Positions 47,296 to 50,505 of a stretch of 64,000 nt of DNA are shown here, piece by piece. Both the position numbers and the translations under genes were made by a program. Each line of letters begins with the position of its first letter. The first letter of the stretch is position 1. This DNA is from Gammaproteobacteria bacterium (GTDB lineage Bacteria; Pseudomonadota; Gammaproteobacteria; Arenicellales; JAJDZL01), in the NCBI GenBank assembly GCA_047517965.1, contig JAKZRU010000017.1, positions 15,122-79,121 of the forward strand. The letters run 5' to 3'. The notes below the pieces were generated by a model. That model did not search any database, had not been told where the DNA came from, and worked only from the letters and a program-made list of their open reading frames with translations.

Positions 47296-47359
47296 TTACA
47301 TGTTTTGTCGGTACTGATGAACTTCTTTTTAAGGAGTTAAAATCTCGACAATCGTTGCG

Positions 47360-47436
47360 CGGGGTATAGCGTAGTCTGGTAGCGCGCCTGCTTTGGGAGC
47401 AGGAGAGCGGGGGTTCAAATCCCTCTACCCCGACCA
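47360..47436 (+). tRNA. tRNA-Pro (anticodon UGG), CCA encoded
   Basis: Hand-folded cloverleaf. Acceptor stem CGGGGTA/TACCCCG. Anticodon arm CCTGC-TTTGGGA-GCAGG. T-loop TTCAAAT. 3' ACCA. Confidence 0.9.
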
Positions 47437-47445
47437 GAGCGTTAT

Positions 47446-47757
47446 GCGCCTGTAGCTCAACTGGATAGAGCAACGGCCTTCAACAGGAGCCTTTACAGGG
47501 AAAACCGAACCTGTAAAGTGGAGGGCACTGTATCGGTGAAACCTTAACGCGTAATGGTGATGGCAATACCGAGGAAACCGCAGACTTCATAGAACTGCGG
47601 GATCCGTAGAGACTATACGTGCCCCGCCTGAGATGGCGAAGATATAGTCCAGACTACAAACTGGTGATTCGAATCCAATAGATTCGTTTGATTAGGCAAT
47701 GAAAATTGTAGTAGTACGCTAAGCCGTAGGTTACAGGTTCGAGTCCTGTCAGGCGTG
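47446..47757 (+). tRNA. tRNA-Arg (anticodon UCU) interrupted by a group I intron; exons 47446-47480 and 47719-47757
   Basis: Joined exons give GCGCCTGTAGCTCAACTGGATAGAGCAACGGCCTT|CTAAGCCGTAGGTTACAGGTTCGAGTCCTGTCAGGCGTG. This is nearly collinear with E. coli argU as I recall that sequence. Anticodon stem ACGGC/GCCGT and loop CUUCUAA. CCA is not encoded, and the 1-72 pair is G-U. Confidence 0.85.
47481..47718 (+). ncRNA. Group I self-splicing intron (IC3-like, no ORF) in the tRNA-Arg anticodon loop between nt 34 and 35
   Basis: P1 pairs the 5' exon GGCCUU with GGAGCC at 47486-47491, with a U-G pair at the splice site. P2 is 47491-47499/47510-47518. P3 is GGGCAC 47523-47528 with GTGCCC 47619-47624. 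P4 is TCGGT 47533-47537 with ACCGA 47568-47572. P6 is CCGCAG 47578-47583 with CTGCGG 47595-47600. P7 is GACTATA 47611-47617 with TATAGTC 47643-47649. P8 is CGCC 47625-47628 with GGCG 47635-47638. P9 is ACTACAA 47653-47659 with TTGTAGT 47706-47712. The last intron nucleotide is G at 47718. The core string GTAGAGACTATACGTGCCCC resembles the Azoarcus tRNA-Ile intron core as I recall it. Confidence 0.85.
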
Positions 47758-47833
47758 CTTTGTTTAGGTTGTGAAAGCTCATATCATATAGTTGATGTGG
47801 TTTTCAAACCGCACGCTAAATTTGATAATGTGT

Positions 47834-47910
47834 GGTGGGCGTAGCTCAACTGGTAGAGCTCTGGATTGTGGTTCCAGCGGTCGTGGGTTCAACCCCCATC
47901 GTCCACCCCA
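47834..47910 (+). tRNA. tRNA-His (anticodon GUG) with the extra 5' G(-1), CCA encoded
   Basis: GGTGGGCGTAGCTCAACTGGTAGAGCTCTGGATTGTGGTTCCAG...CGTCCACCCCA is collinear with E. coli tRNA-His as I recall it. G-1 pairs with C73. Confidence 0.9.
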
Positions 47911-47946
47911 TTTTTTAGGGGATTGCTGTAATGTGGAGTGAAATAG

Positions 47947-48921
47947 TTGCGTCTTCCATCGCTTGAAGAAATTAACTCTGCCGCCTCATTAGTCTCCAGC
48001 TATCTCCCACCCACCCCGCAGTATCAGTGGCCATTGCTGTGCAATCGTAGTGGAGCCCAAGTCTGGGTGAAACACGAGAATACGACTCCGATCGGCTCAT
48101 TCAAACTGCGAGGCGGTATCCACTATCTTTCCAACACTCCGCATGATCGCGTAATTACCGCGACACGCGGCAATCATGGACAGTCGGTTGCCTTTGCAGC
48201 AGGCCTTTTCGGTAAAAAGGCAACGGCCGTGATTCCACACGGAAACAGCACCTCCAAAAACGCCGCTATGCGCGCTCTGGGTGCAGAGCTGATTGAATAC
48301 GGTCGAGACTTTTCCGAGGCACACGAATATGCTCACCAGCAGGCCAGACAGCAGGGACTTCACTTTGTCCCCTCGTTCGACCGAAAACTGGTCGTCGGTG
48401 TCGCTTCTTATGCCCTGGAACTGTTACAGGCAGTGCCCAGTCTCGACGCGGTTTATGTTCCGATTGGCCTAGGCTCGGAAATTTGTGCGATGATTGCCGC
48501 TCGAGAAGCGTTAGGATTTGACGTTGAAATCATCGGCGTAGTGGCTGAAAATGCACCCACCTACGCGCTTTCGTTTGAACAGGGAAAGGTTGTCGAAACT
48601 GACTCTGCAGATACTTTGGCTGATGGCGTCGCGGTTCGCGTTCCCAACCGTGAAGCACTGGAAATCATACTCGAATATGTATCCCGGATTGTTCGCGTAT
48701 CGGAACTCCAGATTGCGAGTGCAATGCGCCATTATTTCACGGATACTCATCATGTAGTCGAAGGAGCGGGAGCTTCAACCTTGGCGGCTTTGCTCAAAGA
48801 AAAAGATCTCATGGCCGGAAAACGCGTTGCGATCATAGCCTCCGGCGGCAACGTTGATCTGGACTTGTATATGAGAATACTGAGCCAAGAAATTCCCGAA
48901 ATGCCGACACCACAATCTTGA
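47947..48921 (+). CDS. PLP-dependent threonine/serine dehydratase (threonine ammonia-lyase-like)
   Basis: 324 aa. ENTTPIGSFKLRGG contains the PLP-lysine motif. The glycine-rich loop is SGGN. TTG start. Confidence 0.8.
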   Translation: MRLPSLEEINSAASLVSSYLPPTPQYQWPLLCNRSGAQVWVKHENTTPIGSFKLRGGIHYLSNTPHDRVITATRGNHGQSVAFAAGLFGKKATAVIPHGNSTSKNAAMRALGAELIEYGRDFSEAHEYAHQQARQQGLHFVPSFDRKLVVGVASYALELLQAVPSLDAVYVPIGLGSEICAMIAAREALGFDVEIIGVVAENAPTYALSFEQGKVVETDSADTLADGVAVRVPNREALEIILEYVSRIVRVSELQIASAMRHYFTDTHHVVEGAGASTLAALLKEKDLMAGKRVAIIASGGNVDLDLYMRILSQEIPEMPTPQS

Positions 48922-48957: not shown

Positions 48958-50505
48958 ATGCGAAGAAAATCCGGCCAACGCTCCAAACGCAATCCTGATG
49001 CAATCCCAAGACTGAAGTGGCGTAAGGTAGTCAATCCTTATGCTCCGTTGGAAATTCTTTCCGAGGATCAGGTTGAAGCCATTCATGTGGCTTCTTTGGA
49101 GGTTCTGCGAGATTCAGGCATCAAGTTTTTGAGCGCCAAGGCTCGCAAGATTCTTCAATCTGCGGGGGCGGAAGTCGATGATTCTTCGAACATGGTGCGG
49201 TTTGATCCGGCTCTTGTGGAAGAATTGATTGGCAGCGTGCCGCCAAGCTTTACCCTAACCGCCCGAAATCAAGAAAGATCTCTGGAAGTCGGCGGCCGCA
49301 ATATCAATTTCGCGACCGTGGGTGGCCCTAGCTTTGTTTCCGACCTTGACAGAGGCCGCCGAAGCGGTACCTTGGCAGACTTGGAGGATTTTTTCAAAAT
49401 TGTCCATGAACTTGAAATTTTTCACTTGGGTGGAGCGAATTCATTTGAGCCTTTGGACCTTCCAGCCGAATCGCGGCATCTCGATAAATACCTTGCCGCC
49501 ACCACCTGTCACGATAGAATCTGGATGGCGAATATGATTGGGGCTTACCGAGCTCGCGACGCGCTTGAGATGCTCGCCATAGTCCATCGCATGGAATGGG
49601 AACAGTTGAAGAAGCAACCAGTGACGATGGGCAACATCAATGTCAATTCTCCTCGACAAGTCGATGAATCCATGTCGGATGCCCTGACTGAATTTGCACT
49701 TGCTGGACAGCCTGTACTTGTGACTCCCTTTACACTATTGGGAGCAATGGCACCGACTACCATGGCGGGCGCATTGGTCCAACAAAATGCTGAGGCACTC
49801 TCCTGTATTGCCCTTTCTCAGGCAGTTCATCTCGGGTCACCCATTATTTACGGCAGTTTTTCCAGCAATGTGGACATGAAGACCGGTTCTCCGGCATTCG
49901 GCACGCCGGAATATGTACGAACGACTCTTGCCAGCGGCCAGCTCGCTAGGCGATATTCCTTTCCATTTCGGTCCAGCGGGTCGAACGCTTCCAACGCTCC
50001 AGACGAACAGTCCGCATACGAAACCTGCATGTCCGTTTGGGCCGCAGTCCTGGCCCATACGAACCTGCTGCTGCAAGGAGGCGCATGGCTCGAAGGCGGG
50101 TTGGTTGCGTCATTTGAAAAACTGATTATTGACGCAGAAATTCTACAGATGATGGCAAAATCTCTCGAACCCATTGTGGTGAATGAAGATACGCTCGCAG
50201 TCAGTGCAATTGCCGATGTCCCTCCGGGAGGTCATTTCTTTGGTTCACCACACACCATGGAGCGCTACCAAGATGTGTTCTACACTCCCCTTTTATCTGA
50301 CTGGCGGAATTTCGAAACCTGGCAAGAGGATGGCGCACTTCATGCATCAAAACGAGCCAACAAAATTTGGAAATCACTTCTGCAAGAATATTCCCGACCG
50401 GTGCTAGACGAAGGAATCTTGGAGGAACTGAAGAGTTTTATCGAACGGCGGAAATTGGAGATCGCAAACGGACAGGAAGACGCAGTGCTTCACAGTCGAG
50501 ATTAA
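48958..50505 (+). CDS. MttB-superfamily (trimethylamine methyltransferase-like, non-pyrrolysine) methyltransferase
   Basis: 515 aa. The N-terminal PLEILSEDQVEAIHVASLEVLRDSGIKF is typical of COG5598/MttB proteins. There is no in-frame TAG. Confidence 0.75.
   Translation: MRRKSGQRSKRNPDAIPRLKWRKVVNPYAPLEILSEDQVEAIHVASLEVLRDSGIKFLSAKARKILQSAGAEVDDSSNMVRFDPALVEELIGSVPPSFTLTARNQERSLEVGGRNINFATVGGPSFVSDLDRGRRSGTLADLEDFFKIVHELEIFHLGGANSFEPLDLPAESRHLDKYLAATTCHDRIWMANMIGAYRARDALEMLAIVHRMEWEQLKKQPVTMGNINVNSPRQVDESMSDALTEFALAGQPVLVTPFTLLGAMAPTTMAGALVQQNAEALSCIALSQAVHLGSPIIYGSFSSNVDMKTGSPAFGTPEYVRTTLASGQLARRYSFPFRSSGSNASNAPDEQSAYETCMSVWAAVLAHTNLLLQGGAWLEGGLVASFEKLIIDAEILQMMAKSLEPIVVNEDTLAVSAIADVPPGGHFFGSPHTMERYQDVFYTPLLSDWRNFETWQEDGALHASKRANKIWKSLLQEYSRPVLDEGILEELKSFIERRKLEIANGQEDAVLHSRD

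Follow-up and report, generated by a model that had tools for sequence, protein, structure and literature searches.

Group I introns of bacterial tRNA genes are classically known from Leu(UAA), fMet, Ile(CAU), and Arg(CCU) genes, all of which carry introns of subgroup IC3. Our literature search found no peer-reviewed description of a group I intron in tRNA-Arg(UCU), only a 2020 preprint, and to our knowledge this combination of host gene and insertion site has been catalogued only in a preprint. Williams (bioRxiv 2020, doi 10.1101/2020.01.27.920355) extended the bacterial tRNA introns to 21 settings, and the seed alignment holds an entry named Rba190.Arg.3Ug. As represented there, the Arg.3Ug class has the same tRNA-Arg host as the locus described below, with a loop that reads CUU/CUAA and is broken after its third nucleotide, a U at position -1, and a terminal ωG.

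The locus lies in the window, which is the whole 64-kb stretch of DNA that was analysed. Window content is chromosomal (htpG, galU, a molybdenum hydroxylase, a threonine dehydratase, and an MttB-family gene; 48.7% G+C), and an Rfam search found no rRNA within it. The genome had been described as gammaproteobacterium-like in the initial annotation, and this is only loosely supported: the window HtpG is ~50% identical to the HtpG of Ralstonia, Legionella, Acinetobacter, and E. coli, with beta- and gammaproteobacterial proteins alike. Protein identity between the window locus and the loci of named genomes never exceeded 62%. On this evidence the host is placed as a beta/gamma-like member of the Pseudomonadota that has no close cultured relatives. 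Between 47360 and 47910 the sequence holds a Pro-Arg-His tRNA operon, the middle gene of which is a split tRNA-Arg(UCU) with an intron within its anticodon:

47360..47436, + strand: tRNA-Pro(UGG), first gene of the operon, with CCA encoded (ARAGORN and Rfam RF00005, 70.3 bits)
47446..47480, + strand: tRNA-Arg(UCU) exon 1, 35 nt, comprising the acceptor 5' strand, D arm, anticodon-stem 5' strand, and C32 U33 U34, ending ...GGCCUU
47481..47718, + strand: group I intron, 238 nt, no ORF (RF00028 at 32.1 bits, covariation, fold z = -4.45)
47719..47757, + strand: tRNA-Arg(UCU) exon 2, 39 nt, starting CUAAGCC and comprising C35 U36 A37 A38, anticodon-stem 3' strand, variable loop, T arm, and acceptor 3' strand
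47835..47910, + strand: tRNA-His(GUG), last gene of the operon (ARAGORN and Rfam)

When 47446-47480 and 47719-47757 are joined, ARAGORN recognises a canonical 74-nt tRNA-Arg(UCU) with the anticodon loop CUUCUAA, as expected from the earlier reading of a 238-nt insert in the middle gene of the operon. The last base of the 35-nt exon 1 is U34 because the D loop has 9 nt, and the intron lies between this wobble base and C35. A promoter and terminator scan at the locus returned nothing above chance. A perfect TATAAT at ~47291, kept in congeners, was spotted by eye only.

Default ARAGORN and Rfam at gathering thresholds found only tRNA-Pro(UGG) and tRNA-His(GUG) at this locus and left the split tRNA-Arg unreported; tRNAscan-SE was not built to handle group I introns. 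ARAGORN in intron mode did find the split gene with a 238-nt intron, placing the boundary 1 nt leftward and labelling the product Ser(GCU). The slide of one base arises where the flanks read T/T and G/C. This output is what speaks for a tRNA-Ser(GCU), to which we assign a negligible probability. The intron would then end in C rather than in the invariant G, and all homologues fit the arrangement ...CUU / intron ...G / CUAA. Bacterial tRNA-Ser has a long variable arm, whereas the tRNA body here has a 5-nt variable loop and is nearly identical, base by base, to tRNA-Arg(UCU) genes that lack an intron. The Ser(GCU) placement was rejected on these grounds, and the gene is treated below as tRNA-Arg(UCU). 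AGA accounts for 93 of the 560 Arg codons (~17%) in the 17 long ORFs of the window, so a tRNA-Arg(UCU) is needed; a second, intron-less copy outside the visible 64 kb, if present, would relax the need for splicing. Because default tRNA finders and curated Rfam miss the gene and the ARAGORN intron mode mislabels it, genomes of this lineage would appear to be without an AGA-reading tRNA, and such an apparent loss would distort inferences about genome completeness or codon reassignment.

The insert carries the paired elements of a group I ribozyme from P1 to P9. P2, P3, P4, P6, P7, P8, and P9, which had been listed from inspection of the sequence, are all present, and so are P5 and P5a:

47478..47489, + strand: P1, CUU/C (47478-81) with GGAG (47486-89), loop AACA
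47491..47518, + strand: P2 hairpin, CUUUACAGG (47491-99) with CCUGUAAAG (47510-18), 10-nt loop, compensatory changes at 47493/47516 in congeners
47523..47528 and 47619..47624, + strand: P3, GGGCAC with GUGCCC, 5 of 6 pairs with double changes, 99.3% of cells paired
47533-38 and 47567-72, + strand: P4, 98% paired, flanked by J4/5 AAA and J5/4 CAA
47542-43 and 47562-63, + strand: P5, from fold and hand comparison
47548-50 and 47557-59, + strand: P5a, from fold and hand comparison
47573-75 and 47603-05, + strand: P6, GGA with UCC, from covariation and fold
47578-83 and 47595-600, + strand: P6a, CCGCAG with CUGCGG, 11-nt loop, from covariation and fold
47611..47615 and 47645..47649, + strand: P7, GACUA with UAGUC, 5' strand inside the conserved GUAGAGACUAUAC, pseudoknotted with P3
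47625-28 and 47635-38, + strand: P8, CGCC with GGCG, loop UGAGAU, 100% paired, 3 of 4 pairs with double changes
47639..47649, + strand: J8/7 and the P7 3' strand, AAGAUA then UAGUC, invariant block AAGA-AU-GUCCAGAC
47653-57 and 47711-15, + strand: P9, ACUAC with GUAGU, 96.8% paired, enclosing P9a and P9b
~47661-47696, + strand: P9a, a long lineage-specific hairpin, the most variable region among congeners
47697-47708, + strand: P9b, CAAU-GAAA-AUUG, GAAA-capped, 100% paired, double changes in 4 of 4 pairs
47718, + strand: ωG, last intron nucleotide; column G203, invariant in alignment A1 (25 distinct homologues)

The 5' splice site is marked by the U47480·G47487 wobble within a P1 that is predicted in all homologues, and the terminal G47718 is the ωG; the splice sites proposed earlier at 47480/47719 are thus exact. 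J4/5 (AAA), J6/7-P7 (GUAGAGACUA-AC), and J8/7 (AAGAUAUAGUCCAG) match the seed alignment of bacterial tRNA introns. The invariant G47611-C47649 pair in P7 is a candidate for the guanosine-binding site. Between P5 and P5a, an internal loop reading CCUUAAC...GUGAUGG resembles a tetraloop receptor, and the P9 tetraloop may dock to this P5 receptor. The P6/P6a region (47573-47605) is where relatives hold ORFs or long inserts. The minimum free energy fold of 47478-47718 reaches -77.5 kcal/mol (z = -4.45 relative to dinucleotide shuffles) and recovers P1, P2, P3, P4, P5, P5a, P6, P6a, P8, P9, P9a, and P9b, the pseudoknotted P7 being the exception.

Covariation was assessed in an alignment of 25 distinct cores from P3 to ωG (alignment A1, built with MAFFT), on which the hand-derived structure was scored. 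Standard pairs filled 93.8% of pair cells among the 25 homologues, compared with 78.2% in shuffles and 30–39% with slid partners. The covariation score was 0.477; shuffles gave 0.177, none of 500 reaching the observed value, and sliding the partners gave no more than 0.118. The window row supplied the structure, which is for this reason favoured over the slid controls, an effect that leaves untouched the count of double changes, found in 25 of the 42 pairs. P3, P7, P8, and P9b are 99–100% paired with many compensatory changes, and P4, P6/P6a, and P9 are 90–98% paired, with P6/P6a at 90%. P7 is paired in every sequence (100%), three of which replace U-A by C-G in a double change, and the P3/P7 pseudoknot architecture is backed by covariation. 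P5/P5a scored poorly, with 58–76% of cells paired, because MAFFT misaligns the length-variable region there, and this low pairing is not evidence against the helix. When each homologue was folded singly, P1 and P2 were predicted in all, the P2 sequences being quite different from one another. Splice marks, helices, and covariation together bear out the initial annotation of a group I intron that has no ORF and sits between U34 and C35.

In a permissive search of 47300-47950 (651 nt), RF00028 (Intron_gpI) matched 47470-47673 over the full model with 32.1 bits (E = 2.3e-6). It was the sole match over the core of the insert; YrlA and a partial tRNA matched weakly at the exon edges. At its 50-bit gathering score, RF00028 gave no report for the intron. 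The anticipated RF00028 hit therefore stands as a significant local match and not as one that reaches the gathering score. Homologous introns score 27–41 bits with the same model, none reaching 50, and these include some with intact endonuclease genes. According to the preprint (Williams, bioRxiv 2020), cut-offs of 18–20 bits were applied because the RF00028 seed holds no bacterial sequence. The missed gathering score reflects a model seeded from eukaryotes and not the biology of the ribozyme. The same sub-threshold score, and nothing further, would favour reading the insert as some other element that resembles a group I core by chance, whether a remnant of an IS, another ribozyme class, or an assembly artefact. 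RF00028 is, however, the only family found over the core, covariation backs the P3/P7 pseudoknot, and the same locus recurs in six independent metagenome contigs and in three sister species. We give a chance resemblance next to no weight and consider it effectively refuted.

The six independent metagenome contigs carry the window locus at 99.7–100% identity. Three sister species, whose DUF488 proteins are 84–88% identical to that of the window and one of whose loci lies on a 3.18-Mb contig, retain the intron, 239–240 nt long, within the conserved gene order htpG-DUF488-(Pro-Arg-His)-threonine dehydratase-MttB. Across these four sequences (the window and the three sisters), the exons of all three tRNAs contain 0 variable sites. 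Variable sites in the intron number 21 of 238 and all fall in P2 (compensated at 47493/47516), L2, P5a, P6a with its loop, and P9a, while the Arg-His spacer, taken as neutral, varies at 12 of 77 sites (15.6%). Since the core is invariant and variation is only peripheral or compensated, these comparisons establish purifying selection on the catalytic core, of roughly the strength that acts on the tRNAs.

This pattern bears directly on whether the intron is a decayed, dead relic and the gene a pseudogene, with AGA read by a tRNA-Arg(UCU) elsewhere. Such decay could be argued from the Rfam score below gathering, from an intron that holds no homing endonuclease, from a view of the genome that spans only the 64-kb window, and from exon 2 (47719-47757), which has a discriminator G and no encoded CCA, unlike both operon neighbours. 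Yet not one site varies among four species in the exons or anywhere in the catalytic core, next to a spacer that varies by 15.6%, the changes in P2 are compensatory, and the core helices and junction sequences all fit the family consensus. Homologues with intact endonuclease genes likewise fall below the Rfam cut-off. We regard a dead relic as very improbable and favour an active intron.

We consider 47481-47718 to be, with high probability, a functional self-splicing group I intron that is removed by the usual two-step route, with guanosine as the initiator; that it is catalytic, and in which order the steps follow, we infer from the established group I pathway. After transcription the intron would fold into P1–P9, and an exogenous guanosine bound in P7 would attack the phosphate after U47480, the U being held by its wobble with G47487. 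The terminal G47718 would next occupy the guanosine site, and the freed 3'-OH of U34 would attack the 3' splice site, so that ...CUU would be ligated to CUAA... and the loop CUUCUAA restored. A P10 helix that would join the loop of P1 to the 3' exon was sought, and none was convincing; for this reason, splice-site alignment would probably be aided by the exons' own anticodon-stem pairing. Zaug et al. are said to have reported in 1993 that the exon anticodon stem assists splice-site alignment in Anabaena pre-tRNA-Leu.

Many group I introns need protein cofactors, and this one may be a true group I intron that splices efficiently only with a host protein or chaperone and is not autonomous in vivo. 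Its short P1 and P8 (4 bp each) and the lack of a visible P10 would suit such a dependence. Related compact bacterial tRNA introns (Azoarcus, Anabaena), on the other hand, self-splice well in vitro, the GAAA tetraloop in P9b and the receptor-like P5 loop suggest a self-sufficient tertiary fold, and no candidate maturase is encoded. Dependence on a protein is in our estimation unlikely, and autonomous self-splicing remains the preferred reading.

Intron-less alleles, whose existence among related genomes had been raised initially, are abundant. A metagenome scan with the joined-exon sequence yielded at least 120 contigs with a near-identical intron-less tRNA-Arg(UCU). Among the matches listed, ~45 of these genes stand in the order Pro(UGG)-Arg(UCU)-His(GUG), and four of the intron-less genes adjoin an htpG with 51–62% identity. 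Given how widespread intron-less alleles are, the intron-less operon is the common state and probably also the ancestral one, and acquisition of the intron dates to the ancestor of the window's genus or earlier. In the window's lineage it would since have been inherited vertically, as a fixed passenger obliged to stay active, and its homing-endonuclease gene would have been lost, or never have been present. The locus offers a clean case of a fixed group I intron without a homing endonuclease that is kept across several species, with the operon of other lineages available without the intron.

To place the intron among its relatives, one genome per GTDB species was scanned with the pattern GGATAGAGCNNNNNNCTTCN{3,8}GGAG, whose matches include intron-less tRNAs with an anticodon stem ending in GGAG. 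At least nine true homologues from at least six bacterial phyla were found, and the window's own species was not among the matches listed; this taxonomic spread is a lower bound. Hosts are Neobacillus sp. SCS-31, Melghirimyces profundicolus, and MAGs labelled as Gammaproteobacteria, Blastocatellia, Bacteroidia, Saprospiraceae, Clostridia, Omnitrophota, and Elusimicrobiota. An exon 1 ending in CCUU, an intron start of the form C-loop-GGAG-CC, and an intron-end G before CUAAG are shared by at least nine genomes. Among the matches listed, the closest relative comes from a MAG labelled Gammaproteobacteria (L031), with the same operon, a 202-nt intron, and 77% core identity; its flanks share no synteny with the window, and this MAG does not anchor the window's taxonomic placement. 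The body of the window intron aligns with scores of 235–251 to this intron and to those of L026 and L056, compared with 145 to Rba190 and 125 to the Azoarcus-type row; J4/5, J6/7-P7, and J8/7 are common to the window intron and all five. Three candidates were rejected as homologues: L029 is a chance match, and L036 and L110 are tRNAs of archaea whose short introns are spliced by proteins.

A scan of IMG/VR with a core pattern of the intron identified 32 viral contigs. In most of these the intron interrupts tRNA-Arg(UCU) at the same site, and in a few it lies in Lys(UUU), Glu(UUC), or Thr(UGU). Related introns total ~40, distributed over bacterial phyla (at least six) and phage contigs, and many of them hold genes for homing endonucleases. 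All phage group I introns known by 2014 were in protein-coding genes, according to a 2014 review.

Longer relatives at the same tRNA site contain ORFs in their P6 or P2 loops. Pfam assigns them to LAGLIDADG in L108, to PD-(D/E)XK (PF11645) in L035 and L109, and to HNH in L147, L144, and other viral copies; similarity adds L111, L141, and L143 to the PF11645 proteins. Such endonuclease ORFs mark the group I introns of this family as mobile, and the window copy is an ORF-less derivative within it. We suggest tentatively, and with more doubt than conviction, that the intron represents a distinct and not yet formally described sub-lineage, marked by J3/4 UGUA, P6 GGA/UCC, and a 4-bp P8 with a UGARAY loop. 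In its full form, this equally doubtful proposal would have the sub-lineage colonise the Arg(UCU) wobble site in at least six phyla as well as related sites in three further tRNAs, Lys(UUU), Glu(UUC), and Thr(UGU), with three endonuclease families and a presence in phage tRNA arrays. If true, phage tRNA arrays could be vehicles that spread the sub-lineage between phyla. The intron family, with at least six phyla, phage contigs, and three endonuclease types, is well suited to the study of mobility between tRNA genes.

The initial annotation had regarded the Arg(UCU) host and site as unusual, a view overturned by the Rba190.Arg.3Ug seed entry and by a family present in at least six phyla and on 32 viral contigs. 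On sequence grounds we file the window intron as a bacterial tRNA-type group I intron of class Arg.3Ug. Its compact architecture with P2 present is consistent with IC3, the likely subgroup.

[quoted passage not shown] In the same part of the alignment, the window differs from Rba190 in J3/4 (UGUA, not AAA), in P6 (GGA/UCC, not GCC/GGU), and in a P8 of 4 bp with a 6-nt loop. The tRNA-Ile(CAU) IC3 intron of Azoarcus sp., a model system for structural work, is likewise compact (~200 nt) and ORF-less, sits in the anticodon loop, and has helices P1–P9. The core likeness to Azoarcus-type introns that had been noted earlier is borne out by the row Aol6.Ile2.5Ug, which shares with the window J4/5 AAA, J5/4 CAA, GUAGAGACUA-AC, and AAG-AUAGUCCAG; its P9 region likewise bears a GAAA tetraloop, and its P5 a CCUAAG...UAUGG-like receptor. 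The Azoarcus intron differs in its tRNA, in its site after loop nucleotide 5 and not 3, and in P6 and P8, and the self-splicing that is predicted for the window intron has been demonstrated for it.

The cyanobacterial and plastid tRNA-Leu(UAA) intron (Leu.3Ug) is a tRNA-type group I intron at the same anticodon position, 34/35 after U, and differs in tRNA, host lineage, and peripheral elements. The alphaproteobacterial tRNA-Arg(CCU) intron (Arg.5Ug; Agrobacterium) is also a group I intron and also interrupts a proteobacterial arginine tRNA, but its isoacceptor is CCU and not UCU, and its site follows loop nucleotide 5, 3' of the anticodon. The Synechocystis tRNA-fMet intron encodes I-Ssp6803I, and introns related to the window's that occupy the Arg(UCU) site encode PD-(D/E)XK proteins of PF11645, which we take to be the family of I-Ssp6803I; the window copy differs in having no ORF and in its tRNA and site. 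Host gene and site are thus already catalogued, and the window intron is a new example of this setting, not a new setting.

In its intron mode, ARAGORN reads the split tRNA-Arg(UCU) gene at positions 47446-47758 of the window as tRNA-Ser(GCU), and several homologues are called SeC, Gln or Stop. These labels are wrong because the program ignores the ωG rule, by which the intron ends in G. Mislabelling of group I-interrupted tRNAs is a systematic annotation pitfall. For the family introns at loci L136 (segment positions of about 543-812), L144 and L157, the host tRNA is Thr(UGU) according to ARAGORN. Applying the U(-1)/ωG rule to them would give the spliced anticodon loop CCU|GUAA, which would place C at position 33, where U33 is normally invariant.

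The split tRNA-Arg gene does not encode CCA, its 3' end reading ...CAGGCGU-G-CUUUG (window 47752-47762, with a G1·U72 acceptor pair), unlike tRNA-Pro and tRNA-His of the same operon, which do. Intron-less relatives often share G1·U72 and G73 with the window gene, yet encode CCA. In the three sister species the tRNA-Arg 3' end is identical to that of the window gene.

Within the intron, the P9a hairpin followed by UUUGAUU (47670-47696) is the one site across the operon region that resembles a terminator, a count no higher than chance would give. Among the sister species, no other part of the intron evolves as fast as P9a. The adjoining P9b (window 47697-47708) is capped by GAAA, and the P5 internal loop (window 47542-47563) is CCUUAAC...GUGAUGG. 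This loop resembles the 11-nt GAAA-tetraloop receptor (CCUAAG...UAUGG), of which it may be a variant. In family introns whose tetraloop is GUAA or GCAA, the P5 loop differs too, a hint that tetraloop and putative receptor co-vary.

Beside the tRNA operon, an uninterrupted MttB-family ORF of 515 aa (window 48958-50505) is kept in all sister species. Its score with the trimethylamine methyltransferase equivalog is 327 bits, where the cut-off is 525 bits, and it is probably a non-pyrrolysine MttB homologue.

At a single tRNA site, members of this one intron family (L108, L109, L035, L111, L141, L143, L147 and L144) encode homing endonucleases of three unrelated kinds: LAGLIDADG, PD-(D/E)XK (PF11645) and HNH. 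The endonuclease insertion loop differs, being P6 in the bacterial copies and P2 in many of the viral ones.

tRNA genes on IMG/VR viral contigs (L127-L158; putative phage DNA, or possibly host flanks) likewise house introns of this family. Two occur together in a single tRNA array of an uncultured phage (locus L282):

LR756508.1, 11548-12876: tRNA array with two family introns, 484-kb uncultured phage

These interrupt Lys(UUU) (193 nt) and Arg(UCU) (175 nt). According to a review (PMC3984707), the phage group I introns known by 2014 were all in protein-coding genes.
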